A stretch of 64,000 nt of DNA, from contig CATQHC010000002.1 of NCBI GenBank assembly GCA_958295775.1, positions 198,915-262,914 on the forward strand, given 5' to 3'. Under the pieces are notes generated by a model. It had not been told where the DNA came from, searched no databases, and worked only from the letters and a program-made list of their open reading frames with translations. This stretch comes from Chloroflexota bacterium (lineage in GTDB: Bacteria; Chloroflexota; UBA11872; VXOZ01). The position numbers and the translations under genes are program-made. Position 1 is the stretch's first letter; every line of letters starts with the position of its first letter. Below, in pieces: positions 4,597-58,144 of the stretch.

Positions 4597-4638
4597 GGTT
4601 TAGCTTCTCTCCAAGTGTCCAATGTTCCAAATTCCATG

Positions 4639-5424
4639 CTACCACCAACGCCAGGGCATGGGGTTTTCGTAAAAGTGTACCGGTATTTCTGGCAATTTAG
4701 ACTGAAGCGCTCGCGCAAACTGGGCCAGACCGGGATTCTCGCTCACCTCGTGGCTAGTTTCAATCATGGGCACGCCCGATTCTTGGGCAAAGTGCATGCC
4801 GTAGTTATCGCTCTCTCCTGCAATGAAAACGTCGCAGCCATACTTGAGAATAGACTGCATGTACCCGACGTTTACAAAGAGGCCCAAACCGCCCCAAGGC
4901 AGTCCAGCCCTCTGGACCGGAGCCGACGGATCGTGTGGTGTCGCGCGCACCGCTTCCATGCCCAGCGCGCCCTTGACTCGCTCCACAAGCGCGCCGTAGG
5001 TGGCGCCTGGCGGGAGGTCGTACGCCTTCAGGTAGGGACCTTCATCTGCCACGGGCGCGCCGAGGCCGAGTTTCTCGGCAAACGCAGTAAATATACAGTA
5101 CCGGTCCAGAGTCCCATGCACTCGCATAACCGTTATCCCCTGGCTTGAGAGCAGACCGATGCGTCGTTGGTTGACACGCCAGCTCAGATACTCCACCGGG
5201 GTAACGCTGTGCTGGGGGCGCCACGAGGGAAAGTAGAGGTCCTCATGGGCAACGATGAGATTGTCGCCGGCTTGCCCCGCATGCTGGATGGCATCGAGGC
5301 TTGCCATCCAGCAAACCTGAATCCCCTTTACTTCCTGCTCGCGGTCGCCAAAGAGAATCCCTTCGTCGCCGCCAAGAGCGCCGCAGGTGTCGCTGATTAG
5401 CTGTAGGACGTCTACCGCGCGCAT
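4639..5424 (-). CDS. Nif3-like dinuclear metal-centre protein (GTP cyclohydrolase 1 type 2 homolog family)
   Basis: N-terminal pattern GD.EQEVKGIQVCWMASLDAIQHAGQAGDNLIVAHEDLYF resembles the Nif3 signature; ATG at 5424. Confidence 0.45.
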   Translation of the reverse strand: MRAVDVLQLISDTCGALGGDEGILFGDREQEVKGIQVCWMASLDAIQHAGQAGDNLIVAHEDLYFPSWRPQHSVTPVEYLSWRVNQRRIGLLSSQGITVMRVHGTLDRYCIFTAFAEKLGLGAPVADEGPYLKAYDLPPGATYGALVERVKGALGMEAVRATPHDPSAPVQRAGLPWGGLGLFVNVGYMQSILKYGCDVFIAGESDNYGMHFAQESGVPMIETSHEVSENPGLAQFARALQSKLPEIPVHFYENPMPWRWW

Positions 5425-7147: not shown

Positions 7148-7205
7148 TTGGAGTGGTTTTCCCAGAGGAAGACTCAAGAGAGCATGAAGAGAAAGAGGGG
7201 CGATA

Positions 7206-8600: not shown

Positions 8601-8813
8601 GCCTCAAGTATCGGGTTTCCCTGCGCATGGAGGATCCTGCCCGTAGCCCGTATCGACGGCATTGCGCTTGCGGGCCAGACGCAGTCGTCTAGAGATTGTT
8701 GGCAAGTGCAGCCGGTGCATGTGGATTGGCGGCACAGCCACTGCTTGCCACCCTTGGTCAGGTCTTGCAAATAGCTACGAATACATTCAGCTCCCAATAC
8801 TAGAGAGCCCCGC

Positions 8814-9782
8814 ATGCAGACACCCATCGAACCCGGTATTTTTCTTCCCTCGCTGGAGCTTTGGCTCGATTCGCGGAGAGTCAAACCGGAGGGTTTCATC
8901 TCTCACGCGCATAGCGACCACCTTGCCTCGCATCATCATGTTCTTGCCACGGCAGAGACCATAGCCCTGGCCGCACAGCGCATGAAGATCAAGCAGGCAA
9001 TGCCGCTAAGCTACGGCGAGCCGCTAGAACGGGACGACTACACGCTGACCCTCTATCCGGCCGGCCACTGCCTGGGCGCGGCCCAAGTTGCCATTGACGT
9101 CCACGCGAGCGGCGAACGCATCGTATATACCGGCGACTTGCACTTGGGGCACGATCTCTTTGGGCGGCCCGCCACGCCGCTGGCGTGCGATACGCTTATC
9201 ATCGATGCCACCTTTGGACATCCCGCGTATGTGTTCCCAGCGCGCGCGAGCGTGATTGACGATGTTTGCGCGTGGGTCAGGGAGACTCTGCGCAACGGAG
9301 AAGTGCCTGTGGTGCTTGCCTACAGCCTGGGCAAAGGGCAGGAGGCCCTCCACATCTTGTTGGAAGCGGGCTTCAACGTTCAGGTGCACGAATCAACCTA
9401 CGCGATGACAGCAGTCTACCTGCAAATGGGCGCAAAGTTTCCAGGGCGATTGCAGCGTTGGCGGGGCAAGCGCGAGGAGGGTACCGTGGTGCTTATGCCG
9501 CCCCATGTACGCAACCGGCGTGAGACCTTTGCCCTGGAGCCCTTTCGCACGCTCCTGCTTAGTGGTTGGGCAATAGATCCTTCTTGCAAGTATCGAATGC
9601 GCGTCGATGAAGCGCTGCCATTGAGCGACCACTGCGACTGGATTCAGCTCAACGAATATGTGGAGCGCGCCCAACCACAGCGCATATTCACCATGTTCGG
9701 TCCGCAGCACTTTTCCGCCCATTTGCGAGATAAGGGAATGGACGCCTGGCCGCTTGAAGCCCACCAAGCGGCGCTCTTCTAG
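8814..9782 (+). CDS. MBL-fold beta-CASP family nuclease (ligase-associated DNA-damage-response exonuclease-like)
   Basis: SHAHSDH (HxHxDH), YPAGHCLGAAQV, VYTGDL, DTLIIDATFG, VVLAYSLGKGQEAL are beta-CASP-like motifs; compact at 322 aa. Confidence 0.5.
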   Translation: MQTPIEPGIFLPSLELWLDSRRVKPEGFISHAHSDHLASHHHVLATAETIALAAQRMKIKQAMPLSYGEPLERDDYTLTLYPAGHCLGAAQVAIDVHASGERIVYTGDLHLGHDLFGRPATPLACDTLIIDATFGHPAYVFPARASVIDDVCAWVRETLRNGEVPVVLAYSLGKGQEALHILLEAGFNVQVHESTYAMTAVYLQMGAKFPGRLQRWRGKREEGTVVLMPPHVRNRRETFALEPFRTLLLSGWAIDPSCKYRMRVDEALPLSDHCDWIQLNEYVERAQPQRIFTMFGPQHFSAHLRDKGMDAWPLEAHQAALF

Positions 9783-10026
9783 CCGCGAGTGTGAGGCCGG
9801 CGTAGCAAGTCTCTTGCCGGACGTGGCGCCCTCGTCACTTTCCTAAACCGCTTCTTTCGGCGATAATGCATGAGATGCGTCGCTGGGAGCGTTAGAGCCT
9901 GACGAAAAGAGCCGATTCGCATAGGCGTTCGCTCCCATTGCCCGCTATCGTGGTCCCGCAGCGCGCTGAGATGCGGCATGCCGCCGAACTCGAAATTCCG
10001 CAGTTGCACAACGTGGAGGATATGCA

Positions 10027-10812
10027 ATGGCACAGGCAATTACCAAGGTTTCGGCTGAAGAGCAGGCGTTCTATGTCGAGAACGGCTATCTCCTGATTAG
10101 GGGTCTGGTTTCTGCGGAGGGCATCGCGGAACTAAAGGAGCGGCTCGAAATGTACATGTACGACCGCTTGCCCGTACCTGAAGGCGTCAAGATTCAGGTA
10201 GAGCCGCGCGTCGAGCGTGGCGAAGTGCCCTGGCCCACGCGACGCGGCGACGCCTATCGCAAGATTGATCGACTCGTCGTTCACGATGATCGTTTTCGCG
10301 CGCTGGGCACCATGCCGGAAGTTGTGGAGCGCATGCAAGCTCTGATCGGCAGCGAGAACCTAAAGCTCTTTCGCGACTCGGTGCTGATGAAACCGGCGCA
10401 GGTGGGATCCGCCAAAGGGATGCACCAGGATTCACCTTATTGGCCGATTGAGCCGATGGCATTGAGCTCATGCTGGATGCCTTTTGAGCCTGCTACCCCG
10501 GAGAACGGCTGCATCACAGCCATTCCCGGCAGCCATAAACGCGGAGCCGTGCCCCACGAGCGCGTGCCGGATGATTACATTATCAACGAACAGCACTATG
10601 ACACCGGTGACGTAATTGCCGTGCCGATGGCAGCGGGCGACGGTCTTTTCTTCCACAGCCTACTGCTGCACGGCACCGCGCCAAACCTCACGGTACAGTC
10701 GCGGCGGGCGATCACGATGAGCTATATGGCGGCGGAATTCAAATATACCGGCGAGCCGCCAAAACCTGACTATCTGCGCATCTGCGGGCAAGACGTCCCC
10801 GGCGGGGTGTAG
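10027..10812 (+). CDS. Phytanoyl-CoA dioxygenase (PhyH) family Fe(II)/2-oxoglutarate oxygenase
   Basis: HQD facial-triad motif (GMHQDSPYWP); distal His in LLLHGTAPN; family-typical length; RBS ggagga. Confidence 0.65.
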   Translation: MAQAITKVSAEEQAFYVENGYLLIRGLVSAEGIAELKERLEMYMYDRLPVPEGVKIQVEPRVERGEVPWPTRRGDAYRKIDRLVVHDDRFRALGTMPEVVERMQALIGSENLKLFRDSVLMKPAQVGSAKGMHQDSPYWPIEPMALSSCWMPFEPATPENGCITAIPGSHKRGAVPHERVPDDYIINEQHYDTGDVIAVPMAAGDGLFFHSLLLHGTAPNLTVQSRRAITMSYMAAEFKYTGEPPKPDYLRICGQDVPGGV

Positions 10813-11020: not shown

Positions 11021-12757
11021 TTGGCAACTACCCAAGTGAATGAGAACATCCGCTACGAGAGGGATGACCGGTGCCCGCCGCTGGTTGCCATAGGCGTGGG
11101 GATTCAGGGCGTCATGATCGTGGTGGCGCCGGCCATATTGATCGTCGCCATCACTGCTCTCGCCGCCGGTCAAGATGAACAATACCTCGCTTGGGCCGTC
11201 TTCGCATCGCTCATAATTGGCGGGGCCATCACTGCCTTGCAGGCTGCGGGTATTAGCTGGCTGGGCACCCGGCACATCCTCATTACGGGAACTACACCGA
11301 ACTTCGTTGCGATTTCGGTCTTGGCCTTGGAGCAGGGCGGCCCGTCTACTCTGGCCAGCTTGATAGTTCTGTCGGCGTTCTTCTACTTGGCGGTGTCGGC
11401 GTGGCTGCCGCGGCTGCGCCGCATCATCACACCCACCGTATCCGGTATCGTCCTCATGCTGATCGCGGCCATGATTCTTCCTGTCGCCTTCGACCGGCTG
11501 AAGGAAGTGCCGGCAGGCACCCCGGAGCTTGCGGGCCCCGGTGTGGCGATGGTCACAGTGATCGTCACCACCTTGCTTGCGCTGCGCGGGCCGGTGTCCT
11601 GGCGGCTGTGGTCGCCGCTGCTCGGGATAGGCGCCGGCTGTGTGGCGGCCGCTCTGTTTGGCATGTTCGATTTGCAGCGACTGATGGAAGCTCCTTGGCT
11701 GGGCCTCCCCAGTGGCGGCTTTCCCGGCCTGGACCTCACGCCCTCAATCAGCTTCTGGGCGCTCTTGCCCATGTTCCTGGTGGTCACTCTGGTGCAGGCA
11801 ATCAAGACCGTTGGAGACGCGGTGGCCGTGCAACAGGTGTCGCAGCGCAGACAGCGTGCAATCGACTTTCGGCTTATCCAAGGCGCGCTCTACGCCAACG
11901 GCGTGGGCATCCTGCTATCGGGTCTCGCTGGGACACCGCCGACGAGCGCTTACTCGTCCTCCACTGCCTCGCTCATCAACCTCACCGGGGTTGCCGCGCG
12001 CAGCGTTGCCTACGCGATGGGGATACTCTTCCTAATCCTGGCGTTCTTCCCCAAAGTCACGGGAGTGCTCCTCACAATCCCCAACCCAATTATGGGGGCC
12101 TTCTTGTTGGTAGCGATTGGCATTCTCTTCGTTGAAGGCATGCGGGCTATCTCTCGTTCCGGCCTCGGCTATCAGGATGTGCTCGTCGTAGGGCTGGCGC
12201 TCTCTATAGGCATTGGGCTGCAACACCAGAACATCTTCGCGGGTATGTTGAATCCACCCTGGGACACATTGCTCGGCAATGGCATCATTGTTGGTAGCGC
12301 AGTGGCGATCGGGCTGACACTACTCCTTGACATAACAGGCCCAAGACGCAGACGCTTGGAGGTGCCGTTGGACAGCTCGGAGATTCCTCGCGTCGATGCA
12401 TTCCTGCAAGAAGTCGCAGCCAAGCTGGGGTGGAATGCTGCTGCAACCGACCGATTGCGCGCTGCGGGCGAGGAGACACTGGCAAGCCTGCTGCAGCCGG
12501 GCAACGAGGATGATGCAGGCAAAGTCCCCCGGCTGACTATCGTTGCAAGACCTGAGGGCAAAGCTGTGGAGCTTGAGTTTCTGGCAGATGTTGCCGAAGA
12601 GAACCTGGAGGACCGATTAGTCTATCTTGATGAGCAGAGCGAGACTCTGGACGACAGAGAGATATCGTTTCGCCTGCTGCGACACCACGCATCCTCAGTC
12701 CGGCACCAAAAGTACCACGGTTTGGACATCGTCACTGTGCGTGTTGACGCAACCTAG
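11021..12757 (+). CDS. NCS2/xanthine-uracil permease family transporter with ~150-aa C-terminal cytoplasmic extension
   Basis: Multi-TM protein; block TASLINLTGVAARSV…FPKVTGVLLTIPNPIMGAFLLVAIG resembles the Xan_ur_permease core; the C-terminal domain is of unknown type. Confidence 0.45.
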   Translation: MATTQVNENIRYERDDRCPPLVAIGVGIQGVMIVVAPAILIVAITALAAGQDEQYLAWAVFASLIIGGAITALQAAGISWLGTRHILITGTTPNFVAISVLALEQGGPSTLASLIVLSAFFYLAVSAWLPRLRRIITPTVSGIVLMLIAAMILPVAFDRLKEVPAGTPELAGPGVAMVTVIVTTLLALRGPVSWRLWSPLLGIGAGCVAAALFGMFDLQRLMEAPWLGLPSGGFPGLDLTPSISFWALLPMFLVVTLVQAIKTVGDAVAVQQVSQRRQRAIDFRLIQGALYANGVGILLSGLAGTPPTSAYSSSTASLINLTGVAARSVAYAMGILFLILAFFPKVTGVLLTIPNPIMGAFLLVAIGILFVEGMRAISRSGLGYQDVLVVGLALSIGIGLQHQNIFAGMLNPPWDTLLGNGIIVGSAVAIGLTLLLDITGPRRRRLEVPLDSSEIPRVDAFLQEVAAKLGWNAAATDRLRAAGEETLASLLQPGNEDDAGKVPRLTIVARPEGKAVELEFLADVAEENLEDRLVYLDEQSETLDDREISFRLLRHHASSVRHQKYHGLDIVTVRVDAT

Positions 12758-12966: not shown

Positions 12967-13875
12967 TCAGCCATTCCCGGTCTCGGCGATGAATTCGCGC
13001 ACGATATCGGCGCACTCCTCAGGCATTTCCAGTGGGAGAAAGTGCGTGGCATCCGGCAGGAAGTCGTAGTCCACACTCATGATGTCGCTTAAGTCGAGAG
13101 TCGGCAAGTACGAGAAGGGCAAGGTAGGATCAGCCCCAATAACCTTAATGGGGCAATGGAATTTGGCAAAGTCTACAAGTACGGCATAGGGGCTGGCATA
13201 GTCCACGATCTGCGCTTCATACGCGGGCGGACACCGCAGTTCATAGCCGGGTCCTTCCTTGCTCTGCCGTGTTGTTGCACGCGCCACGAGTTCGATAGTC
13301 CCCGGCACGGTGTGGTAGAACAATGGTGAGAAACCAAGGAGCTCTACGAAATCCTCCCTGCTCTTGAATCGTTCGGTGCGGCGCCGGGCCATGCCAGCGG
13401 CGCGCGTCGCAGCCGCATCGAATTCTTCATAGCTGGCGCCGGGTTTGCACAACGGCGGGTCAAATAGAATTAGCGCAGCAAACCGGCTGCCTTTGAAGGG
13501 TGAGACAAGTGTTGTGAGCGCAGAGACGGAGTGGAATACCCCAGTCATGGGTTTCTTGCCGTAATTGCAGTCAATCGCGTCGAGAATCAGATCATGGTCG
13601 CGCGCAAAGGTTGCTATTGTGTGCTCTCTGGCGGATGTCACAGTATTCCAGCCGTGGTTCCTGAGATCATGGACGATCACGTCGTAGTCGCTGGTGAGGA
13701 GCGACCAGAAGGGGTAATACAGATCAACTGCGAGGCCATTGCCGTGACAAATGAGCAGCCGATGCCCTTCCGGATTCCCGTGGCGGCGCAGAGAAATCAC
13801 GGTCTCATCGTCCACTTGCACTTCGAGAGTGGCAAGCGGATCAGGCACATTCCAAATTGCGTTTGCAGCCGACAT
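12967..13875 (-). CDS. Alpha/beta-hydrolase fold protein (putative acyl-chain releasing hydrolase of the PKS locus)
   Basis: HGNG oxyanion region, nucleophile-elbow-like FHSVSA, overall a/b-hydrolase pattern; located directly after the PPTase in the PKS cluster. Confidence 0.55.
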   Translation of the reverse strand: MSAANAIWNVPDPLATLEVQVDDETVISLRRHGNPEGHRLLICHGNGLAVDLYYPFWSLLTSDYDVIVHDLRNHGWNTVTSAREHTIATFARDHDLILDAIDCNYGKKPMTGVFHSVSALTTLVSPFKGSRFAALILFDPPLCKPGASYEEFDAAATRAAGMARRRTERFKSREDFVELLGFSPLFYHTVPGTIELVARATTRQSKEGPGYELRCPPAYEAQIVDYASPYAVLVDFAKFHCPIKVIGADPTLPFSYLPTLDLSDIMSVDYDFLPDATHFLPLEMPEECADIVREFIAETGNG

Positions 13876-13882
13876 AGGCGCG

Positions 13883-14611
13883 CTAGTCTTTCAAGATTGC
13901 GCTAGCTCTCGCTTCGCTCGCAAGAGCTGCCGCGAACCATTTGGTGCCAAGGTCTTCGATGTGCCACGTCACGGCGGGCATTTGCGGTAGCTGCAGCACG
14001 CCGCCGCGCATGCCCTGGATCATCGCGAGCGGGGTCTCAATCCGCGTGGCGTCGAGCGAGAACCCCTTGCCGTGAGCTTTGATGAGTGCTTCTTTAATGG
14101 TCCAGAGCTTGTAAAAGAAGTGTAGCCTATCGGCCCCCTGTGTAGATGCGAACTCAGCCTGTTCTCGCTTGCTGAGCACCGTGTCAACAAGAAACTCAAG
14201 GTTGCGGCGGCTGTCCCGTTCCTCGACGTCTACTCCCAGCCGGCCCTTTGGCGCGAGCGCGACCAAACCGTGTTTGCCACTGTGGCTTACATTGAAGCTG
14301 ATTGCGGCGGGTTCCCCATCCAGCAGGGCGAAGGGCTTCCCATGTTGGGTAAGTGCAAACGTTAGCTGCTCATTCTTGCATTGGAGCTGATCGCAAATCA
14401 CGGCACGCAATGCGGCGCGACATAATGAAAATCTGCGCCGGGGGCCCGCATAGGGAAAGCGCCGCCTACGGGCCTGCTCTTGCGCGTCCAGCCAAGCAAT
14501 TGCTGCGGTTTCTCCCTTAGCGCTGGGTAAAAGGTCTACATGGATTACATCAACTGAGTTGATAGTCTTGAACGGGGTCCACCAGCGCTCAGCATGTGAG
14601 TTGAGCGACAT
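13883..14611 (-). CDS. 4'-phosphopantetheinyl transferase, Sfp type
   Basis: PPTase motifs GVDVEE and WTIKEALIKAHGKG; ~240 aa, typical of Sfp-type enzymes. Confidence 0.75.
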   Translation of the reverse strand: MSLNSHAERWWTPFKTINSVDVIHVDLLPSAKGETAAIAWLDAQEQARRRRFPYAGPRRRFSLCRAALRAVICDQLQCKNEQLTFALTQHGKPFALLDGEPAAISFNVSHSGKHGLVALAPKGRLGVDVEERDSRRNLEFLVDTVLSKREQAEFASTQGADRLHFFYKLWTIKEALIKAHGKGFSLDATRIETPLAMIQGMRGGVLQLPQMPAVTWHIEDLGTKWFAAALASEARASAILKD

Positions 14612-14748: not shown

Positions 14749-15000
14749 CTAAGCCGCTTGCGAGTCAAGAAACTCAATTAGCTCACGAAGGTTGTTGAGT
14801 GTCGGACAATGCTCACGCGTGAAGGTGACATTGAACTCTTGCGCCACCACTTTTCCAAATGAGACGATATCCATCGACGATACGCCGAGGTCTACGAGGC
14901 TGGCTTCCAAATCGACGGACGATCCAAGTGACTTACCGTCAACTTCCAGATTATCCGCAACGAGACTACGAACCCTTTCTTCCGTAGAGGCCATATACAT
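14749..15000 (-). CDS. Discrete acyl carrier protein
   Basis: 83 aa with LGVSSMDIVSF phosphopantetheine-attachment-like site; RBS agggaga upstream. Confidence 0.6.
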   Translation of the reverse strand: MYMASTEERVRSLVADNLEVDGKSLGSSVDLEASLVDLGVSSMDIVSFGKVVAQEFNVTFTREHCPTLNNLRELIEFLDSQAA

Positions 15001-15205: not shown

Positions 15206-16068
15206 TTAGAACCAGTGACGGCGGCGTTGGAAAGGGTAGCCTGGCAACGACACACGGCGCCTTGCTTCTCCGGCGAACAGCCCCCTGAAAGTTATCGCCA
15301 GGCCGGCCTCATACGCTCTCGCAACCGCCTCGGTGAATTCATTCCTGGGCCCAGGCGCTGTTTCCACAGAGGCTGTTCGTACAAGGGCTGCAATTGCAAC
15401 TGGCGCGTGAGCGCTCGCTGTCGCGCCTGCCGGTTCCGGTCGGTCTGTGGCAACAGTGAGACAAGAGTCTGTCCCGGAGTCAATCTCTATTACCACATCT
15501 ACGCCAAGTTCAACGAGAGATTCTAAGCTGTCTTGGGAGTGCGGCTGGTCTATAGTGCGCTGTTGCCAGTATGACGTGTCAATTTGCTCGCCCGGCGCCA
15601 CAGTGCGCCCCAACCCGTTACTCACGTACGTGACCGAAGGTGATGAGAGTTCGAGCTCTTGTACCCCGGCTGCCAGCGCCTCAGTATTGGGGCCGGCCGG
15701 GACCGCGTCGGCAAGCTCTGCTGCATGCGTGCCAAGTGCCGCGGTAAGCCTAAGTCCGTCTTCCAAACTCAATACGCCCGCCGCCTGCGCCGCGGCAATC
15801 TCGCCACGCTTGGATCCGAGCACCACATCCGGCCGGACGCCCACGGTTTCCCACAATGCGGTCAGCGCACATGCCAGCGCATAGAGCGCCGGTTGCAGCA
15901 AAGCGGGGTCTGCCGGCTCTCCCTCCGCTCCACTCGCTCCAAGCATGGCGTCCAGCAAAGATGCGCCGTGCTCTTCCTGGTAAACCTCATTGCAACGGTC
16001 AAAGACGGCGCGCGCAACGGGCTCCTGCTCATACAGGGACTTTCCAAGCTAAGCCGGCGGCAATCCGC
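15206..16068 (-). pseudogene. Decayed acyltransferase (AT) domain remnant of a second PKS module
   Basis: After KVAFVFSG the GQGSQW motif is replaced by a 22-nt stretch that shifts the frame; the downstream frame then reads LGKSLYEQEPVARAVFDRCNEV…LLDAMLG…, paralleling AT1. The active site GHSLGE has become GSKRGE. The ~110-aa small-subdomain region including the AFHS motif is absent. It ends with the post-AT linker …YPFQRRRHWF*. Confidence 0.65.
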
Positions 16069-19000
16069 GCCGGAAAATACGAACGCCACCTTGGTTGCGC
16101 TTGGCGGATCGAAATCTTCAGGCTTTTCATCGCTTGCCGCCAGCGCTGCAAGCTGCAACTGTAAGTCCCTGGCATCTTGAAACACCAACCCCTTACGATG
16201 CGCAAAGTGGCTGCGGCCCACGCCGGCGGTCCAGGCAATGTCAGAGAGCGTGGCCTCTGCAGCCAGGTCTGGCAAACCCGATGCAACGTTGTGTTGAGTG
16301 AGCCATGCCAGATAGCTCTCTGCGAGCTGGCGCAAAGCGCGGTCGGTCTTGCCAGCGAGCGGCAGAAGACGCGTAGTACGCGGGGTGATCGCTGCCACCG
16401 GCCCCGCGGACACAGCATCGGGAAGGGAAACCTCAACTTCTCGCGAAACTCCGGCCGGCCACTCCTGGTTCGGGTTGCCGTCGCTGGGCTCGTCATGTGC
16501 GCCGTAGCCTTCCAACAAGAGGTGCGCATTTGCGCCTGAAATGCCAAATGCATTAACCCCCGCGAGCGGCGGCCGGTCGGTAGTGTGCGGCCAGTCCGTC
16601 GCGGCGGTCGTCACCTGGACAGGCATGCGCTCCCAATCTATGTCGGGGTTTGGTGTTTGAAAGTTTATGTGCCGAGGTATTACTCTTCGGTTCATTGCCA
16701 GGAGAGTCTTGATGACGCTGGCCGCGCCACCCGCGGACTCAAGGTGTCCGATGTTCGTCTTTACCGAGCCAATGAAAAGCGGACGCTCTGGTGTACGACT
16801 CTTGCCATAGACAGAGGAAACCGCGTTCAATTCGATGGCGTCACCCAGGGGCGTCCCCGGCCCGTGGGCTTCAACATAGTCGACGTCAGCCGGGGCGAAC
16901 CCGGCTTGGGCAAGCGCTTCCTCCATTACACGCTCTTGCGCCGGGCCGTTCGGTTGGGTGAGGCCCAGGCCCGCGCCGTTTTGGTTCACTGCCGAACCCC
17001 GGATCACGCCCCAAATACGATCACCGTCCGCTTCGGCGTCGCTTAGCCGCTTGAGAACCACCATGCCGCAGCCTTCGCCGCGCACGTAACCGTCTGCCGC
17101 GGCGTCGAACGACCAGCACTGGCCTGTTGGAGACAACATCCCAACGTCTTCGAGGAAACGCATTACCGATGGGGCGAGGACCGCTTGTACGCCGCCGGCC
17201 AGCGCCAAGTCTACTTCGCCACGCTGCAAACTCGCCGCCGCCTGGTGCACGGCAACCAAGGATGACGCGCACGCCAGGTCTAGCGGCACCGCGGGACCTT
17301 CCAAGCCAAGCGAATACGCAATCCGTCCCACGGCCACGCCGCCGGAAGTACCAAAGAAGTCGTCACCCCCGCCGTTTGCGCTAATCAGCCGGCGATACTC
17401 GCTGCTGCCGATGCCTGCGTACACGCCGCTACGGCTGCCCTTGAGCCGGTCTGGGTCAATGCCTGCGTCCTCGAGGGCGTGCCAACTCGTCTCAAGCAAG
17501 AGGCGTTGTTGCGGATCCATGGTGCGCGCTTCGATGGGCGCAATCCGGAAGAACCGCGAATCAAAATAGTCTATCTCATCGATAAACGCCCCTCGTCGAC
17601 TGGCGGCATCCTCAGCGTCCGGGTCACCGGCGACGCCGGTCCATGAACCGGCATCTTGGCGTCCGTCCGTGACCTTGTTCATGCCGGCATCCAAGATCTT
17701 CCAGAATGCGTGAATGTCATCCGCGCCGGGGAAGCGGCACGCCATGCCCACGACGGCAATGCCATCCTGGTCGGTTTGGACTTGTGGCGGCGGATCCGGC
17801 GCAATGCTCGCGGGAGGCGTCGGCAGTTCTTCGACAGCACCGAGCTCTGCGGCCAAGTGGCGCGCCAGACCGGCAATGCTGGGATAGTCGAATACCACGG
17901 TGTTGGAGGCCACGTACTCCCCGGCAAAACCACGGTTAATGCGGTTCCGCAACTCGACCGCCATGAGCGAATCCATACCCAGATCGGAGAAGTCCACCGT
18001 GGGGGCCGGCTCCGTCGGCAAGCGCATGACTGACTGGATCTCCTGCTGAAGGAACGACACGAGTATCTGCTCGCGCTCAGCGAGGGCAGCGGCGTGGAGA
18101 CGAGGCATCAAATCCTGTGGCAATTCGGATTGCTGCTCTTCGCCATCCGCGGCAGCGGACAACAGATCTTCCAGCAGTAGCGGTTTGTCCTCATGATTCT
18201 GAGCGAATACCTGCCAGTCGACTGCAGCGACCATGCCGGCGGTAACATCCTGGCGCATGAGCGATTCTAGCGACCGCAATCCCTGCTGCGGTGTCATCCA
18301 ACCTGTTCCCGCTGCTTCCAGTTGACGCGAGATTCTGTCGCGCTGTTCTTCCGCTTCGCCAAGTCCCGCCCATGCGCCCCAGGCGATAGATTGACCCGCA
18401 AGTCCTAGGGCCCTGCGGTGGCCGGCAAGCTGATCCAGAAACGCATTGGCGGCCCCATGGTTCGCCTGACCGGCATTGCCTAGCACACCCGTAACGCTGG
18501 AGAACAGCACAAAGAGGTCCAGGTCGCGGTCCAAAGTGGCGCGGTGGAGATGCCAAGCGCCCAAAACCTTGGGCCACAGCACGTCTTCAAAACCTTCCCA
18601 GGTCTGGTTGGTGAGCGCGGCATCGGAAAGGACACCTACGCTATGGATAATGCCCGCGAGCGGCGGCAAGGACACATCGATGCGTGCCAACATCGCATCC
18701 ACCGCAGCGGCGTCTGTAACATCGGCCAACTCTACCCGGATCTCTACGCCGCGCCGCTGCAGTGCGTCGATTGCTGCCACCGCCTCAGGATCGGGATCAC
18801 GGCGGCCGTTCAGGACAATCGCCCCGGCGCCGCGTTCCGCCAGCCAGCCGGCCAAGGCGCAGCCAATGCCGCCAAGGCCGCCCGTTATCAGGTAGGTTCT
18901 ATCGTCTCGCAACTGCCCGGTCTCGATCGGAGATATAGTGAGTACGATCTTGCCAATGTGCCGCGCCGCGCGCATGAAATCCATGGCCGGCCCGGCTTCG

Positions 19001-22000
19001 GTGAGCGACCATCTGCTGTGAATGAGCGGTGTCAGCGCTCCATCGGCCAACTGTTGCATCACCCTTCTTAGGGCGTCACCCGGGAGAGCTGGGTCGTGTT
19101 CCTTCAACGTGTCTAGTTCCAGGATGGTGTAGGCAACGTCCGGCCTTGCCGCTGCCATTTCTTCCATACTCAGGATGCCTACCCGCGCCAGCTCCACGAA
19201 GCGGCCGCTTTGCGCCAGGCAGGATAGGCTCGCCTCAATGAATCCTTCTCCGGTCAGGCTGTTCAATACAACGTGAACACCCTGGCCTTCAGTGGCGTCG
19301 AGTATTTGCTGCCCAAAAGCCGTCTGGCGGCTGTCGAAGACGTGCTCTACACCGAGTGAGCGAAGGAAGGCCTGTTTTGGAGCGCTTGCCGTGGCGTAAA
19401 CTTCGGCGCCCACAGCCTGGGCTAACTGTATGGCCGCCAGGCCCACGCCGCCTGCGCCTGCGTGAATTAACACCCGGTCACCGGCTTTCAAGTCGGCAAT
19501 GTCGTACGACAATGCGGCGGAAACGAACGCAGTCGGCATCGTGGCAAGTTCCGCCACAGAGTAACCTTCCGGTGCGGGCGCCACCATCTCTTCGACCATA
19601 ATGGCTTCCGGCCCAAACGTCCCAAACGCTAAACCGACCACGCGATCTCCCACCGAAACCGCCGTCACGTCTGTGCCAACCTCTAGGACTCGTCCGCAGA
19701 ACTCTCCACCCAACAAGCCCTCGTCAATGAGTGCAAGCGACCGAAAGACATCCCAGAAATTGAGCCCCGCTGCGTCGACGGCCACGCGGACCTCTCGCGG
19801 TGCCAGCGGCCTGGCCGGAAACGGTCCCACCCCCATGCTCTCGAGGGCGCCGCCTTCATCCGGCTGCAGAAGCCAGTGCGACCCCTCAGGCAGCATTAAC
19901 CGGTTGGTCTCGGCGCCAATTCGCACCAGACGGGCCGCCTGACGGAGTCCTGATCGATACGCAATGTGGTCTTCGTTGTCCGGATAGAGAAGCTCATTAA
20001 CCAATTCGGACAGCGGAGTCTCTTGTTCAGGTTCCAAGTCGAGCATTCTTGGTTGCAGGTCGCCTGCTTCCCGTGCCACCACCTTGCCAAATCCCCACAG
20101 CAAAGCGCCGGAGAGCTGCCCGAGACGCTCCTTTGCCAGCACCTGCCCGCCACGCGTTAAAAACCACGTGCCATTCTCAGGAGTTACGTCGGCGTCGCCC
20201 ATGCCCTGGACCAGCGCGAGGGCGCTTGCCCCGGCACTTCGCACATCCTCGGACAATTCTGCGGCCGCAGCATCGGGGCCATGACCATCCAATGCTGTCA
20301 AATGAACGATGCCGCTGAGCGGTAAGTCTTTAGGCAACGCTGCGAGCAGTTCCTGCCAAGGTTCGCGGCTCTTTGATTCAAGGGAGGCTCGGAAGACGCC
20401 GGAGGTTTCCTGGACGCTTAATGGAGACTTCTCTACGCTGTCATTGACCAGCACCACGGTCTGGTTGCGTGTCGCCAGGGCCGCTGCCAAGTCTTCCGCA
20501 GTGCCGCCGCGGTCTGCTGCCAGCACCCAGGCGCCCGCTGATTCCAGCACTTGCTCCGGGCCCTGTGCCACGATGACGCCCCGGTCCGGCATTCTGGTCG
20601 AGTCGCTCGTATCCACTCCCAAGACTTCTACTTCTTGAAAGCCGGCGTCATACAGCGCTTGGCGCCAGACTGCGGGACTTGCCAGGGCATGGTGTGGCCG
20701 GTATTCGTCAGCAAACCGCCACCATCCGTCTAGCTGCCCAAACGTCAAGTCGAGCCAGCCCTGTCCACGAAGGTTTTCTAGGGCAACGAGTTGTCCGCAT
20801 GGCGCGAGAAGCTCCCGACAATGGCCGAGGGTTTCCTGAAGATACCGGGTGGCATGGAGCACGTTGGACGCAATTACCAAATCATAGCCATGGGCATTGA
20901 ATCCCTGCGCCAACGGGTCTTTTTCAATGTCAAGCACCCTATACTCTATGGACGCCTCAGCGCCGCCAAAGCGCCCCTCCGCTTCCGCAAAGAACCCGGC
21001 AGAGATGTCCGTATAGACGTAGTCGAACCTACCAGCCGGTAGTTCGGGCAATACGGCTGCCGTAGCCGACCCGGTACCGGCGCCGACTTCCAAGACCCGC
21101 AGCCTCCGTTCGCTAGGCACGCTGCGCAGCAGCGCGGCAACAGCGTCGCCCAACATCTTGTTGGCGGCACGCGCTACGGGCGCCTTGCGATACAGGTCCG
21201 CGGCGCTCGGTTCGCCGCTGCTGAAGAGCAGCGTCAGTGGGTCTGCTTCACCGCGCAGCACGTCCGCCAAGGCGCCGGCACTGCGACGAAACAGACCGAT
21301 TTCGTTCGACCCGTGTGCATACTTTGAGTCCATCTGGACCGCAAATGCGTCGGGGTCAGCAGGCACCTCATCGGGCAGAGCGTCCTCGGGCCCGGCAATC
21401 ACGGTAAAGTCGCCGCCATTCTCCTGCAAAACGCCGGCTTTCGCCTGCATCTCCAGCAGACGGCGGAATAGGCGCCGGTGCTCGTCCAATACGTTAAGTT
21501 GCCGCCGCAGGGTCTCCGGTTCAATTATCTCTCCTACTTGCCGCTGCCACCCTAACTGCTCCAGAGTTACGCGAGCGTAGGACCACGACAGGTGTTCCAG
21601 GTCCGTCAGCAAGGCATCGCGGTCATCGGGTGCGACGCCCTCCGCCGACAGATATTGAGAAAACGTGTCGGATCGAGCCGCAATGGCCGCGGGGCGAATG
21701 AGAAAGTCCGCAGACGGCATTCCTGGCGGCAGGGGGCGGTCTCGCCAGATCACCTCATACAGAAGGTCTGCGACTTCCTCTGTTGCCGAGAGCAACGCGG
21801 CGCGCGTAGCCCGCTTTACCGTGTAGCCGTCCAGTCCGCCGATTTGCGTGCCATCCTGCGAGTAGAGGCGCAGGTCGCCAGACAGCACTTCCGGTGTGTC
21901 ACTTGAATTGTCGTCGGACACGGTGTCCCTGGCGCTTTCGCGTAAGCGCGCGTGGCAGATGAGGCGTTCCGGCAATGGCTTTGTCAACCACATCCGCTCC

Positions 22001-25000
22001 CATCCAAAAGGCAGGTATGCCTCTCCGCCTTCAGCGTTGGCCTGTCGCCGGGCAGCCGCCATAACCTGAAAACAGCCGTCAAGCACAATTGGATGCGTTT
22101 CTATGCCGCTGAGGTCTGCGGACTCTTGGAGAGCTATTTCTCCGATTGCTTCCCTCTCGCCCGTCCACAGTGACTGGAGGGTGCGGAACCGCGGGCCAAG
22201 AGTTACATTAACCTCCGCTCTGGCGCGATAGAAGCCCTGTATGTCTTGCACTGCAAGACCTTGCCTCAAACCATCCAAGCTAACGGTCTCACTGGCCTGT
22301 TTCGCGCCGGTAGACACCTGGCACTCCACGTGCAGCGTCCAGCTATCTTCATCCTCGCCTTTGCTGTACACCTCGACCCGGCGCGAGGATCCTACCTCGG
22401 GTGCGCCAAGCACGAGCTGCACCCTACGACTCTCCGGTTGGGAATCCTCTTCCGCATCCTGTTCCGGCAGAATTATTGGGTTGTGCAGTTGGAATTCTTC
22501 CACAACCACCGGTCCACCGACTTCCGTCCACGCCGCTGACACAGCCATAGCCCCGCAGAGTGCCGCCGGCACCACGTGACGGCCGTACACCTGATGATCG
22601 TCCAACCAGGCAGGATCCGCTGCCGAAATCTCCGTCTCGAATGAGACTTCGCCAAGGGGCGACTCATGCCGAGACCCCAATAGCGGGTGGTCTGCGCTCG
22701 ACCGGCGGCGGCTCGGAGCGTCAACCCAATGGCGGCGGCGCTGAAATGGATAGTCGGGCAGCGAGATGCGCCGGCGACTTTCACCGGCGAAAAGTCCTTC
22801 TAGGGAAAGAGACAATCCAGCTTCAAACGCTGTGGCCACAGCGTCTACAAAGCTGCTCTCGGGCTCTGTTGTCGTACTATCTCTGGGCGGCCGCCGGAGG
22901 CTGGCCACCACCAGCGGGGTGTTGTCTGTCCGACCATTCGATGGTTCCGGCCAGGCCAAGGTCGCCATCGGTCCCAGCACGGCGTGGGGACCAATTTCCA
23001 CTACAACGTCAACGCCCAATTCGGCAAGAGTCTTGATGCCTTGGTTAAATGCCACCGGCTGCCGCATGTGACGGCGCCAGTAGTCCCCATCAAGATTTTT
23101 ACCCGATCCTATAACTTGACCCGTGACATTGCTCACCAATTCGATTGAGGGAGCTGAAATGCCAACGTCTTTCAACGCAGACGCAACATCCTGTAGAGCA
23201 GGTTCAATGAGGGCACTGTGGAAGGCCTGGCTCGTATTCAAGCGCCGGACGCGCACATCCTGTGACTCAAAGCGCCCCATGATCGCCTCGACACCGGGTA
23301 CGGGACCGCTTACTACTTGGTGGGCGCCGTTAAAGGCCGCAATGCTGACGTCGAGATCGTTGGACGAAGCATTCACCGCACGTATCGCTGCCATTACATC
23401 TGGCTCCGGAGCAAAAATGGCAGCCATTGCGCCCGCACCGGACAGCGCATCAAGCGATGCACCGCGCCGTGTCACAAAACGCATGCCAGCTTGCAGCGAA
23501 AAAACGCCGGCTGCCTGCGCTGCCGCAAACTCGCCAAGGCTATGTCCTACCACCATGCTGGGCCGAATCCCAACGCTCGCCCACATTGCCGTCAAGGCAC
23601 ATTCCAATGCATAGATTGCGGGTTGCGCCCAGGCGGTAGCGTTCAAGTTGCCTGTCGCTTCCGGCCGTCCAAACATCACATCCAGCAGTGAATCCCCGCG
23701 CTCCTGCTGAAATACCGCTTCGCACTGATCCAATACAGCCCGGAAGACCGGTTCGTCTTTATACAGCGTTGCTCCCATACCGACCCACTGGCTGCCTTGT
23801 CCGGTGAAGGCAAATGCCACCTTACGTGAAGCGGTCGTCTCCGACGCTGCAGGAGCTTCCAAGAGCTCTTGCAATTGTTCACGCAGCGAGGCGGCGTCCT
23901 GAAACCTTAGAGCGGCACGATGGGGAAAGTGGCTGCGGCCGACACTCGCAGTCCAGGCCATGTTTGAGAGCAACGTGCTCGCAGCAGGATCCTCGTCTGC
24001 AAGCTCATCGCCATGCGCGTCGAGCCAGGCGAGGTAGCGGCCTGCCGCTTCCTTGAGCGCTTGGTCGCTCTTGCCCGATAGCGGCAGCAGGCGCGTGGGG
24101 CGCGAGGAGGGGCCTTCCGCCCGTGCCGGTTCGGGAACATCATCCGGTAGCGAGACCGCAATCGGGTACAGAGCGCCGGTTGGCCAAGACGGTGCTTTCC
24201 CTGCACCGGATGCGCTGTCCGACGCTTCGTGGCCTTCCACAATTACGTGCGCGTTTGTGCCCGACCAGCCGAAGCCACTGACACCGGCCAGTGGGAGGCG
24301 ATCCGGCTGGCGCGGCCACTCCATTGTCTCCGACGTTACCTGCAGCGGCAGTCGGTCCCAATCGATTTCAGGATTAGGGGTGCGGTAGTTGCGGTGTTTT
24401 GGAATCACCCCCTGATGCATAGCCAGGACAACCTTGATTACCCCGGCGACTCCCGCGGCGGACTCAAGGTGGCCGAGATTCGTCTTGACCGATCCGATGA
24501 GTAATGGGCGTTCCGGTTCGCGGTCTTGGCTATAGGCGGTCCCTGTAGCCTGCGCCTCAATCGGGTCGCCCACCGGCGTGCCCGTACCGTGCGCCTCCAC
24601 GTAGTCTACTTGGGAAGGCAGGACGCCAGCGCGACTCAGGGCGTCCGCGATTACCTGTTCCTGCGCCGCTCCATTCGGCACGGTCAGTCCCGGGCTCGCC
24701 CCGTCCTGGTTAATGGCCGATCCTCTTATCACGCCCCAGATGCGGTCGCCGTCGGCTTTCGCCTCGCTCAGGCGCTTTAGGACAATTATTCCGCAGCCTT
24801 CACCCCGCACATACCCATTGGCGGCGGCGTCAAACGTCTTGCATTGCCCATCCGGCGCCAACATACCGGCATTGCCGCGCAGCTCCAGGAGGCGCCCGGA
24901 GAGAATAGTATGGACTCCCCCCGCAAGTGCTAGGTCCGCCTCTCGCCTCTGCAATCCAACTATTGCTTGATGAATTGCTACCAACGATGATGAACAGGCA

Positions 25001-25608
25001 GTGTCCAACGCGATCGCCGGTCCTTGAAAACCCAGCGCAAAACACACGCGACCGATGGCGGTGTTAAAGGAGGTGCCGCTTACCGAATACAGGCTGGTTG
25101 CAGGCTCGGCTGTATCGCCGGACCCGAGAACCAAATCGCGGTATTCCATGTTGCTGATGCCTGCGTAGACGCCGGTGGGGCTGCCTCTGAGACGTTCCGG
25201 ATCAATGCCGACATCTTCAAGAGCCCGCCAACTCGTCTCCAGCATGAGCCGCTGCTGCGGGTCCAGCAGTTGCGCTTCAACCGGGGAGATTCGGAAGAAC
25301 CCGGCGTCGAACTGGTCGATCTCGTCCAGATACGCGCCAAATAGGCAGGCTTCGTTTTGGACTTCAGCATCCGGGAACAACTGACCGATACGGCCGATGC
25401 CGGAACCGGGCTCACCCTGAATGACGGCCGTCTTTCCCGCTTCCAAGAGACGCCAGAAGTCCAAGAGGGTCGGAGACTGGGGAAAGCGGCACGCCATACC
25501 GACAATTGCTATCGGCTCCTCGAGCTGGCGAGGATGGGGCGGGGACGTTTCCGCTTTGGCACTCGTATCCACGGAGTTGTTACTTTGCATAGCTGACTTC
25601 ATTGTCAA
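15862..25608 (-). CDS. Type I polyketide synthase, highly reducing with C-methyltransferase: KS-AT-DH-cMT-ER-KR-ACP plus KS2 (3' end frameshifted)
   Basis: Approximate domain coordinates (nt, minus strand) with diagnostic motifs: KS1 24235-25512 (DTACSSS, HGTGT, GHLE); AT1 22963-23820 (GQGSQW, GHSLGE, QAFHS, suggesting malonyl specificity); DH 21814-22692 (HPLLGSRHESP); cMT 20689-21291 (LEVGAGTGSAT); ER 18934-19896 (LIHAGAGGVGLAAIQ); KR 18349-18900 ([15 protein letters not shown]); ACP 17839-18066 (LGMDSLMAV); KS2 16504-17766 (DLACASS, HGPGT, GHLE). The reading frame is lost after residue ~3180 (nt ~16069). Confidence 0.85.
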   Translation of the reverse strand: MTMKSAMQSNNSVDTSAKAETSPPHPRQLEEPIAIVGMACRFPQSPTLLDFWRLLEAGKTAVIQGEPGSGIGRIGQLFPDAEVQNEACLFGAYLDEIDQFDAGFFRISPVEAQLLDPQQRLMLETSWRALEDVGIDPERLRGSPTGVYAGISNMEYRDLVLGSGDTAEPATSLYSVSGTSFNTAIGRVCFALGFQGPAIALDTACSSSLVAIHQAIVGLQRREADLALAGGVHTILSGRLLELRGNAGMLAPDGQCKTFDAAANGYVRGEGCGIIVLKRLSEAKADGDRIWGVIRGSAINQDGASPGLTVPNGAAQEQVIADALSRAGVLPSQVDYVEAHGTGTPVGDPIEAQATGTAYSQDREPERPLLIGSVKTNLGHLESAAGVAGVIKVVLAMHQGVIPKHRNYRTPNPEIDWDRLPLQVTSETMEWPRQPDRLPLAGVSGFGWSGTNAHVIVEGHEASDSASGAGKAPSWPTGALYPIAVSLPDDVPEPARAEGPSSRPTRLLPLSGKSDQALKEAAGRYLAWLDAHGDELADEDPAASTLLSNMAWTASVGRSHFPHRAALRFQDAASLREQLQELLEAPAASETTASRKVAFAFTGQGSQWVGMGATLYKDEPVFRAVLDQCEAVFQQERGDSLLDVMFGRPEATGNLNATAWAQPAIYALECALTAMWASVGIRPSMVVGHSLGEFAAAQAAGVFSLQAGMRFVTRRGASLDALSGAGAMAAIFAPEPDVMAAIRAVNASSNDLDVSIAAFNGAHQVVSGPVPGVEAIMGRFESQDVRVRRLNTSQAFHSALIEPALQDVASALKDVGISAPSIELVSNVTGQVIGSGKNLDGDYWRRHMRQPVAFNQGIKTLAELGVDVVVEIGPHAVLGPMATLAWPEPSNGRTDNTPLVVASLRRPPRDSTTTEPESSFVDAVATAFEAGLSLSLEGLFAGESRRRISLPDYPFQRRRHWVDAPSRRRSSADHPLLGSRHESPLGEVSFETEISAADPAWLDDHQVYGRHVVPAALCGAMAVSAAWTEVGGPVVVEEFQLHNPIILPEQDAEEDSQPESRRVQLVLGAPEVGSSRRVEVYSKGEDEDSWTLHVECQVSTGAKQASETVSLDGLRQGLAVQDIQGFYRARAEVNVTLGPRFRTLQSLWTGEREAIGEIALQESADLSGIETHPIVLDGCFQVMAAARRQANAEGGEAYLPFGWERMWLTKPLPERLICHARLRESARDTVSDDNSSDTPEVLSGDLRLYSQDGTQIGGLDGYTVKRATRAALLSATEEVADLLYEVIWRDRPLPPGMPSADFLIRPAAIAARSDTFSQYLSAEGVAPDDRDALLTDLEHLSWSYARVTLEQLGWQRQVGEIIEPETLRRQLNVLDEHRRLFRRLLEMQAKAGVLQENGGDFTVIAGPEDALPDEVPADPDAFAVQMDSKYAHGSNEIGLFRRSAGALADVLRGEADPLTLLFSSGEPSAADLYRKAPVARAANKMLGDAVAALLRSVPSERRLRVLEVGAGTGSATAAVLPELPAGRFDYVYTDISAGFFAEAEGRFGGAEASIEYRVLDIEKDPLAQGFNAHGYDLVIASNVLHATRYLQETLGHCRELLAPCGQLVALENLRGQGWLDLTFGQLDGWWRFADEYRPHHALASPAVWRQALYDAGFQEVEVLGVDTSDSTRMPDRGVIVAQGPEQVLESAGAWVLAADRGGTAEDLAAALATRNQTVVLVNDSVEKSPLSVQETSGVFRASLESKSREPWQELLAALPKDLPLSGIVHLTALDGHGPDAAAAELSEDVRSAGASALALVQGMGDADVTPENGTWFLTRGGQVLAKERLGQLSGALLWGFGKVVAREAGDLQPRMLDLEPEQETPLSELVNELLYPDNEDHIAYRSGLRQAARLVRIGAETNRLMLPEGSHWLLQPDEGGALESMGVGPFPARPLAPREVRVAVDAAGLNFWDVFRSLALIDEGLLGGEFCGRVLEVGTDVTAVSVGDRVVGLAFGTFGPEAIMVEEMVAPAPEGYSVAELATMPTAFVSAALSYDIADLKAGDRVLIHAGAGGVGLAAIQLAQAVGAEVYATASAPKQAFLRSLGVEHVFDSRQTAFGQQILDATEGQGVHVVLNSLTGEGFIEASLSCLAQSGRFVELARVGILSMEEMAAARPDVAYTILELDTLKEHDPALPGDALRRVMQQLADGALTPLIHSRWSLTEAGPAMDFMRAARHIGKIVLTISPIETGQLRDDRTYLITGGLGGIGCALAGWLAERGAGAIVLNGRRDPDPEAVAAIDALQRRGVEIRVELADVTDAAAVDAMLARIDVSLPPLAGIIHSVGVLSDAALTNQTWEGFEDVLWPKVLGAWHLHRATLDRDLDLFVLFSSVTGVLGNAGQANHGAANAFLDQLAGHRRALGLAGQSIAWGAWAGLGEAEEQRDRISRQLEAAGTGWMTPQQGLRSLESLMRQDVTAGMVAAVDWQVFAQNHEDKPLLLEDLLSAAADGEEQQSELPQDLMPRLHAAALAEREQILVSFLQQEIQSVMRLPTEPAPTVDFSDLGMDSLMAVELRNRINRGFAGEYVASNTVVFDYPSIAGLARHLAAELGAVEELPTPPASIAPDPPPQVQTDQDGIAVVGMACRFPGADDIHAFWKILDAGMNKVTDGRQDAGSWTGVAGDPDAEDAASRRGAFIDEIDYFDSRFFRIAPIEARTMDPQQRLLLETSWHALEDAGIDPDRLKGSRSGVYAGIGSSEYRRLISANGGGDDFFGTSGGVAVGRIAYSLGLEGPAVPLDLACASSLVAVHQAAASLQRGEVDLALAGGVQAVLAPSVMRFLEDVGMLSPTGQCWSFDAAADGYVRGEGCGMVVLKRLSDAEADGDRIWGVIRGSAVNQNGAGLGLTQPNGPAQERVMEEALAQAGFAPADVDYVEAHGPGTPLGDAIELNAVSSVYGKSRTPERPLFIGSVKTNIGHLESAGGAASVIKTLLAMNRRVIPRHINFQTPNPDIDWERMPVQVTTAATDWPHTTDRPPLAGVNAFGISGANAHLLLEGYGAHDEPSDGNPNQEWPAGVSREVEVSLPDAVSAGPVAAITPRTTRLLPLAGKTDRALRQLAESYLAWLTQHNVASGLPDLAAEATLSDIAWTAGVGRSHFAHRKGLVFQDARDLQLQLAALAASDEKPEDFDPPSATKVAFVFSGADCRRLSLESPCMSRSPLRAPSLTVAMRFTRKSTAHLCWTPCLERVERRESRQTPLCCNRRSMRWHVR

Positions 25609-56901: not shown

Positions 56902-56907
56902 GCGGCG

Positions 56908-57351: not shown

Positions 57352-57363
57352 GCGGGTGCAGTC

Positions 57364-57549
57364 CTATTCTACTTCTTCAACGTGTACGAGATGCGAGACT
57401 TTCTCAATCATCCCGCGCACGGCCGGTGATTCATCGTGTTCGACTGTTTGCTCGCGTTTTCTTAGACCAAGCGCCGTAACGGTCTGCTTCTGGTCTTTTG
57501 AGAAACCGATGGTGCTCTTGCGTAATGTGATCCGCAGTTTAGCCGCCAC
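57364..57549 (-). CDS. rpmD: 50S ribosomal protein L30
   Basis: GTG start; [36 protein letters not shown]…; the ORF track extends it to 57684. Confidence 0.85.
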
Positions 57550-57550
57550 T

Positions 57551-58132: not shown

Positions 58133-58144
58133 TGCCTCATTCAG

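Follow-up and report, generated by a model that had tools for sequence, protein, structure and literature searches.

A supA-type polyketide synthase gene with a conserved dead-acyltransferase tail and a one-base frameshift in a Chloroflexota genome

Layout of the megasynthase gene

The stretch of DNA analysed here (the window) comprises 64,000 nucleotides (nt) of a Chloroflexota bacterium (contig CATQHC010000002.1, positions 198,915 to 262,914). Its minus strand carries a supA-type polyketide synthase (PKS) gene, and the 3′ end of this gene is the subject of the present analysis. There, a second ketosynthase (KS2) is followed by the remnant of an acyltransferase (AT), written here as AT°. We read the region as the conserved tail of the gene, in which the dead AT is kept in frame as a folded, non-catalytic scaffold, and we put the probability of this reading at about 80%. 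In the window, one missing base interrupts this tail. As assembled, the open reading frame (ORF) spans 15862–25608 and encodes 3248 amino acids (aa), with a probable ATG start at 25602. The Pfam domains follow the order ketosynthase (KS), AT, dehydratase (DH), C-methyltransferase (cMT), enoylreductase (ER), ketoreductase (KR), PP-binding acyl carrier protein (ACP), KS, and the families of the KS C-terminal extension and linker; a 68-codon out-of-frame tail ends the frame.

AT1, the AT of the first module, has the GHSLGE elbow, the Arg, and a malonyl-type QAFHS motif. The integrated ACP of this module (17839–18066) carries a GMDSL phosphopantetheine site and is joined to KS2 (16489–17775) by a short Pro/Ala-rich linker. 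A preliminary description, made from the sequence alone, had reported a second KS with Cys/His/His signatures after the ACP, and DLACASS, EAHGPGT, and NIGHLE are indeed found there. Since the Lys of VKTNIGH is intact as well, KS2 is predicted to be a catalytically complete, competent ketosynthase. KS2-AT° and KS1-AT1 of the same protein share 54% identity. The frame continues through the KS-to-AT linker domain (LD; 16093–16488; PF16197, PF22621, and PF22336) into the first AT β-strand, KVAFVFSG (16069–16092). These are the final in-frame residues, and they are followed, as had been described, by 68 out-of-frame codons and the stop (15862–16068). The stretch equivalent to GQGSQW, which is degenerate and holds the 1-nt shortfall, lies at 16048–16068.

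The remainder of AT° and the post-AT linker occupy 280 open codons of the -1 frame (15209–16048), with a stop at 15206–15208. The preliminary description had correctly seen that the rest of the AT can be read in another frame, but its extent of 15206–15958 was too short. The frame opens at 16048 (LGKSLYEQEP...), directly after an in-frame TAG at 16049–16051, and its C-terminal end reads ...FAGEARRRVSLPGYPFQRRRHWF before the stop. From base composition, 280 open codons are expected by chance with a probability of about 6e-5. The remnant matches PF00698 (Acyl_transf_1) with E=4e-13 and the KS-AT of CurL with E=1e-26, and a chance origin is excluded. Separate translation of the remnant was also considered and found unpersuasive: the first ATG, GTG, or TTG is a TTG at 15958, 30 codons in, and the AGGA upstream of it is weak and badly spaced.

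The elbow that should hold the nucleophile of AT° (15800–15817) reads GSKRGE, as previously noted, instead of the canonical GHSxGE. The alignment to CurL falls into two blocks, query 1–138 on chain residues 580–719 and query 142–294 on 798–935, which identifies the segment missing from AT° as the AT small subdomain. Between the LxxGxRx helix and PSxxxVS, 35 residues (15641–15745) replace a segment of 108 residues in AT1 that contains the ferredoxin-like small subdomain and the AFHS His. The internal deletion claimed earlier, with the loss of the AFHS segment, is thus present, at about 73 residues rather than about 110. The conserved post-AT linker (15209–15409) stands at the end, as the description had it, and terminates in YPFQRRRHWF. 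An active cis-AT extension module is not found here: the elbow is GSKRGE, the domain has lost the small subdomain along with its His, and a stop comes right after the post-AT linker. Judged by these residues, AT° is predicted to be incapable of acyl transfer.

The dead acyltransferase as a family feature

The repaired KS2-AT°, with the missing base restored, was used as a query for a protein search, which returned thousands of relatives. The best of these share 50–66% identity with it, and most of the matches listed span the whole query. A genome scan yielded 29 family loci from metagenome-assembled genomes (MAGs) labelled Dehalococcoidia, Chloroflexi, Acidobacteriota, Longimicrobiales/Gemmatimonadetes, Latescibacterota, Nitrospirales, and Rhodobacteraceae. 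In 24 of the 29 loci, a single open frame of 3344–3615 aa spans the protein from KS1 to the AT-like region, KS2 included, and it stops 0–13 residues past YPFQRRRHWF. The tail is also intact in locus L003, which brings the loci with the tail in one frame (3230–3615 aa) to 25. Overall, the family tail was seen in more than 100 homologues, in sponge-type MAGs and at least six phyla, and it is complete in about 100 of some 105 database proteins. Protein matches of 830–1470 aa had suggested that most genes of the family are broken. This idea was dropped, as the search seems to list proteins only up to about 1.75 times the query length and the genome loci are mostly intact.

Across 93 database homologues, the same losses recur. 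The nucleophilic Ser is absent from AT° in all but one (92/93), the elbow being mostly GHGxGE or GQGxGE, with GDGxGE and similar variants, and the small subdomain is replaced by 11–47 residues in every homologue. With a single exception, the stop follows HW[FIV] after 0–15 residues. The motif variants tabulated for this set retain the Cys, both His, and the VKTNIGH Lys of KS2. The preliminary description had proposed to look for an intact second module at orthologous loci and had named a conserved KS-only C-terminus as a possible native state. The homologues instead carry a KS together with this dead AT. Together, the loci and proteins show the native family protein to be KS-AT-DH-cMT-ER-KR-ACP-KS2-LD-AT°-post-AT linker.

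A tree of KS domains from 25 genomes with 120 outgroup KSs recovered KS1 and KS2 as monophyletic groups that are sisters to each other. The duplication is therefore old and predates the radiation of the family. AT° is an AT large subdomain whose Ser nucleophile and His-bearing small subdomain were lost before that radiation. A domain that looks decayed in one sequence can thus be a conserved and selected structural feature.

Selection and predicted fold

The ratio of nonsynonymous to synonymous substitution rates (dN/dS) was estimated by the Nei-Gojobori method for 45 genome pairs with unsaturated dS. Median values were lowest for KR (0.08) and KS2 (0.11), followed by AT1 (0.17), DH (0.21), the post-AT linker (0.25), the N-terminal half of AT° (0.30), LD (0.33), and the C-terminal half of AT° (0.40); the highest single AT° value was 0.77. 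A pseudogene would be expected to show a dN/dS of about 1 and stops or frameshifts in most orthologues. Neither was found, with medians of 0.30–0.40 and 24 of 29 loci intact through the tail. The tail is under purifying selection, similar to LD. Since the dead AT is in frame across the family and under such selection, its decay is ancient and fixed, which sets it apart from a fresh pseudogene.

The repaired KS2-LD-AT°-linker (855 aa) was modelled with AlphaFold2 on a 94-sequence alignment, and the model reached a mean predicted local distance difference test (pLDDT) score of 87 and a predicted template modelling (pTM) score of 0.90. The pLDDT was 85–95 in the N-terminal half of AT° and above 90 in the post-AT linker. 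Among PDB structures, the KS-AT didomain of CurL was the best match, with a template modelling (TM) score of 0.84, followed by Lsd14, DEBS, Pks13, MAS, and CalA3. Taken together, dN/dS and the predicted fold indicate that AT° behaves like LD, as a constrained, folded, and non-catalytic element. Identity of the window AT° to its homologues (0.52) is close to that of the homologues among themselves (0.54), and no extra decay is visible.

Rates also differ along the gene in some pairs. Between L013 and L018 or L010, and between L022 and L024, dN was 0.28–0.36 for KS1-AT1 and 0.07–0.11 for KS2 in the same gene pairs, a contrast that suggests mosaic genes produced by recombination between supA variants.

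The single-base frameshift

The preliminary description had proposed that the 33 nt encoding QGSQWxGMG are replaced by 22 nt in the window. Comparison with the family gives a smaller lesion. Of 93 homologues, 92 have a segment xG-(7 residues)-xG-xxLY of exactly 15 residues. In the window, 20 nt lie between the Gly codon and CTT GGA AAG, compared to 21 nt in the family, so that one base is missing. Restoring one base after AGC gives SGADCRRLSLGKSLY, which has the family spacing. Because the GQGSQW motif is degenerate throughout the family, no 11-nt motif deletion has occurred in the window, and the lesion is a single base. The missing base can be placed at 16048–16050. The TAG at 16049–16051 in the AT frame requires the shift to lie at or after the "ag" of cttAGctt (16049–16050), and a codon-by-codon comparison with the syntenic locus L081 puts it at the codon matching the conserved Gly. 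The simplest reading would be the loss of one C from AGC|CTT, turning AGC CTT into AG CTT.

This 1-nt frameshift is the sole feature that sets the window apart from the family. The protein as assembled ends 68 junk residues past KVAFVFSG and loses both AT° and the post-AT linker. For annotation, the AT-like tail should be assigned to supA, not to a separate pseudogene or ORF, and the gene record should carry a flag for the one-base frameshift.

We lean slightly towards a real and very recent mutation over an assembly error. About 25 other genes of the 64-kb window give end-to-end Pfam matches, which indicates that the assembly is not prone to indels, and the source contig is 1.29 Mb long. Moreover, the site contains no homopolymer run, with at most a CC dinucleotide, and sup genes in other genomes carry lesions that look genuine. 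If real, the frameshift would be a further step in the recurrent erosion of AT° and of sup genes among the relatives.

Several points weigh against this reading. With AT° under purifying selection, its loss along with that of the post-AT linker should be selected against, which argues for an error in the assembly or consensus. The absence of decay in the 280 downstream codons fits an artefact as well as a very recent mutation. Metagenome contigs were scanned for the junction in the same species, and no such sequence was found against which it could be checked: an exact-pattern scan gave 0 matches, and the best match of a protein-based scan had 47% identity. A consensus error, which is somewhat the less probable explanation, would mean that supA is in truth intact, with about 3467 aa as in its relatives, and that the locus holds nothing unusual. 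It is favoured by the close syntenic relatives (L081 and L094–096), all of which are in frame at the site together with 24 of the 29 genome loci, by the downstream codons being not only open but conserved as in homologues, and by the exact family spacing that one restored base gives. Many supA variants co-occur in sponge metagenomes, 123 in one specimen (PMC4245539), and in L081, a relative with low coverage, the hydrolase gene is evidently frameshifted.

A programmed change of frame, by ribosomal frameshifting or transcriptional slippage, would yield the full-length protein from the sequence as it stands, and a -1 shift past the AGC codon would bring back the exact family spacing. Such an explanation is next to impossible: no slippery heptamer or homopolymer occurs at CGG CTT AGC TTG, the tRNA-Ser on AGC cannot re-pair with UAG, and no homologue shares a frameshift at this site.

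Recurrent erosion of AT° and sup genes in relatives

Natural variants reveal that AT° can be shortened or removed, and it is in this sense dispensable or eroding. The closest genome relative over the whole protein (61% identity) is locus L037 of the Nitrospirales MAG JAJEJG010000005.1. At 11699–11970 of this locus, AT° has been cleanly excised in frame. KVAFAYTGQ is followed by 14 residues and then by the post-AT linker (KVAFAYTGQ-VASGSGPAPEDRGG-LVEAVAGAYEAGL...HWF), which leaves a trans-AT-like layout of KS, linker, and post-AT linker. The C-terminal half of AT° is deleted in database protein P0027, L026 has a frameshift within AT° at a short duplicated VRANAV stretch, and four of the approximately 105 database tails end prematurely inside AT° (P0092, P0119, P0094, and P0064).

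Lesions elsewhere in supA include a frameshift in the ER of L017 and one before the ACP of L099, the latter on a contig with 35x coverage. In the Bryobacterales-labelled scaffold L100, an in-frame TAG stands exactly in the ACP-KS2 linker (HLAA*LAEVG, at about 8925–9000), and KS2-AT° is called as a separate protein of 844 aa; this TAG marks either a nonsense mutation or a half-module that is split by nature. In L101 (10001–17093), Tn5/DDE transposases have cut supA to its first 366 aa (KS1), and the ACP and hydrolase genes survive. L102 and L103, from a Rhodospirillales-labelled MAG, retain KS-only relics. In an amplicon study, 15.4% of supA KS reads contained frameshifts, the cause of which was not determined (PMC4245539). 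A different kind of rearrangement is seen in L003 (11296–12080), where a tandem partial duplication downstream of the intact supA stop joins the last 61 codons of supA with the 49 codons that open the ACP gene.

The states of the AT form a series: the full AT1, the dead large subdomain of most members, the half-deleted AT° of P0027, the excised AT° of L037, and the frameshift-truncated forms of the window and L026. It is a modest and tidy example of domain erosion in megasynthases. We consider it possible, though doubtful, that the Sup family preserves in this way the steps from a cis-AT module to an AT-less KS served in trans, with KS2-AT° and a discrete ACP as a working split second module. 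Such a module would pass an α-methyl-branched chain on for elongation, which would explain a mid-chain methyl branch.

These losses also bear on the view taken in the preliminary description, namely that a KS-AT cassette was partially duplicated, that its AT is now a decaying pseudogene in a vestigial module, and that the working protein ends at KS2. Its account of an origin by duplication is supported. KS2-AT° is a paralogue of KS1-AT1, the two KSs form sister clades, and the AT is catalytically dead. In addition, the assembled ORF does stop shortly past the KS2 linker, and some relatives have lost or broken AT° in independent events. A recent or ongoing decay is very improbable, as the same dead AT is in frame in at least six phyla, with a dN/dS of 0.3–0.4 and a confident predicted fold, and the duplication is older than the family radiation. 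A vestigial module is likewise at odds with the strong constraint on KS2 and with the dedicated discrete ACP that follows it. Nor does the native protein end at KS2: its C-terminus in the homologues is the post-AT linker, which is kept even where L037 has deleted AT°.

Operon context and assignment to the Sup family

Downstream of the supA stop, and absent from the preliminary description, lies a gene for a discrete ACP of 83 aa (14749–15000, minus strand) with a PP-binding domain and a GVSSMD motif. It is followed on the same strand by a Sfp/HetI-type phosphopantetheinyl transferase (PPTase; 13883–14611) and an α/β-fold hydrolase (12967–13875), presumably a releasing or editing enzyme, for which NCBIfam gave no specific function. 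A convergent permease of the NCS2/xanthine-uracil type (578 aa; 11021–12757, plus strand) corresponds to the SupE type of the literature. The order PKS, ACP, PPTase, hydrolase, and convergent permease is kept in most of the 29 or more loci. The discrete ACP is present in 27 of 33 family loci, always next to or near the hydrolase, and a protein identical (100%) to that of the window, P0121, is encoded on a public 1.29-Mb contig.

In sponge microbiomes, Sup clusters rank among the PKS genes of highest abundance. The single-module order KS-AT-DH-MT-ER-KR-ACP of SupA is found in the window gene and in the 24 full-length homologues, and the small ACP, PPTase, hydrolase, and SupE-type permease of the sup operon are all present. 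The closest homologues come from sponge-type MAG bins (such as SB06xx_bin and COS_bin). The sponge symbiont ubiquitous PKS (Sup) and its supA-E cluster were described by Fieseler et al. (2007) and Hochmuth et al. (2010), as cited in PMC3908369 and PMC4245539. They represent a widespread family of mono-modular PKSs that has been proposed to make methyl-branched fatty acids (PMC3908369, PMC4245539); the mid-chain methyl-branched product is a proposal of the literature only (PMC4245539). The name SupE was given to a 557-aa permease in a clone from an Aplysina symbiont (table in PMC3908369).

The window gene shares with the Sup PKSs a single fully reducing module with a cMT, the accessory genes, homologues overwhelmingly from sponge-type symbiont MAGs, and the common occurrence of frameshifted variants, and it differs in nothing essential beyond its 1-nt frameshift. 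It is an ordinary, though frameshifted, member of this known family. The assignment is drawn from architecture, synteny, and homologue provenance, a limit that counts against our overall reading. A search with the KS1 amplicon region returned no match labelled SupA, and literature keyword searches, in texts that did not include the original description of Sup, gave no account of the SupA C-terminus.

Two tandem ceramidase-like genes (amidohydrolase), a gene with a metallo-β-lactamase fold, and a PhyH-family dioxygenase gene flank the sup operon at 5786–10812 on the plus strand. They are kept in the same order in L081 and L094–096, at 78–91% identity. With the permease gene included, this wider synteny has 75–90% protein identity, and KS2-AT° is in frame in these relatives.

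Possible role of KS2-AT° and comparison with known systems

The discrete ACP, PPTase, and hydrolase are inherited together with KS2-AT°, and no ACP is fused after AT°. Judging from this gene content, KS2 may be a second condensing site with neither an AT nor a fused ACP of its own, which elongates chains by means of the upstream ACP and an integrated or discrete ACP; we rate this model just short of an even chance. KS2 would take the reduced, α-methylated chain from the upstream ACP, as in any transfer from an ACP to the next KS, and condense it with malonyl on the integrated ACP or, likelier, on the discrete ACP. Malonyl would be loaded onto the carrier by AT1 or FabD. The cMT would supply the methyl branch, the PPTase of the operon would activate the carriers, and the α/β-hydrolase would release or edit the product. 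AT° would only hold the assembly of KS, LD, and post-AT linker together, and it may offer a docking surface. A weak point of this model is that it names both the carrier with which KS2 works and the enzyme that loads the extender unit purely by inference. The discrete ACP that accompanies KS2-AT° and the hydrolase, as well as an AT° that can be removed, provide concrete handles for expression experiments.

In calcimycin biosynthesis, the KS of CalA3 off-loads the chain by amidation and forms a C-N bond (PMC10006239; PDB 7wvz, 8i4y). KS2-AT° may likewise be a terminal release or transfer device, in which an ACP-less KS off-loads the chain onto an amine, an alcohol, or a carrier and the dead AT stabilises the unit. 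Both are terminal PKS units without a fused ACP, in which an active KS stands beside a structural AT with its Ser replaced (mostly by Gly) and its His lost; the corresponding residues of CalA3 are G651 and L755. CalA3 is also among the structural matches of the model, and two ceramidase-like amidohydrolase genes lie in the neighbourhood common to the close relatives. We nevertheless regard such a function as improbable. KS2 keeps every residue for decarboxylative condensation, including the VKTNIGH Lys, and the discrete ACP and hydrolase already give a conventional route of elongation and release. The ceramidase synteny is confined to close relatives. Furthermore, CalA3 is a separate polypeptide that has a docking domain, an AT with both subdomains, and DH and KR domains that are inactive, whereas the unit in the window is fused after a complete module, has lost the AT small subdomain, and has no DH or KR after AT°. 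CalA3 is still the best-characterised analogue of a terminal KS that lacks an ACP and stands beside a dead AT kept for its structure.

The AT-less KSs of trans-AT PKSs are a second point of comparison for the condensing role proposed for KS2. They keep the LD and post-AT linker and obtain AT function from elsewhere, and L037 is organised in exactly this way. The window and most of the family differ in that they keep about 230 aa of AT large subdomain, predicted to be folded; within the family, only L037 is AT-less. In addition, the sup cluster contains no trans-AT gene, and the obvious source of AT function is AT1 in the same protein.

Structural pseudo-domains are known from other megasynthases, such as the pseudo-ME and pseudo-KR of mammalian fatty acid synthase (FAS) and the C-terminal truncated condensation domain of LovB. 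As in AT°, catalytically dead remnants persist there in frame, either as scaffolds or as what is left of a downstream module that was lost. They belong to other domain types, and an AT cut back to the large subdomain is not among them. PKSs of the mycocerosic acid synthase (MAS) type (PDB 5bp1, 9d2y), which appear among both the structural and the sequence matches, resemble the Sup enzyme as iterative, fully reducing KS-AT-DH-ER-KR-ACP proteins that produce methyl-branched fatty acids. The MAS-like enzymes derive their branches from methylmalonyl-CoA and have neither a cMT nor a second KS, in contrast to the malonyl-type QAFHS AT1 and the cMT of the window gene.

Additional observations in the neighbourhood

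In L081, the closest syntenic relative, three extra small genes stand between supA and the ACP gene (3825–5270), one of them with a weak match to a HepT-like toxin, and an Abi_C gene is inserted beside the permease. At the far end of the window (56900–64000, minus strand), a run of short, packed ORFs (about 90–280 aa) with a strong AT skew resembles a ribosomal-protein operon.

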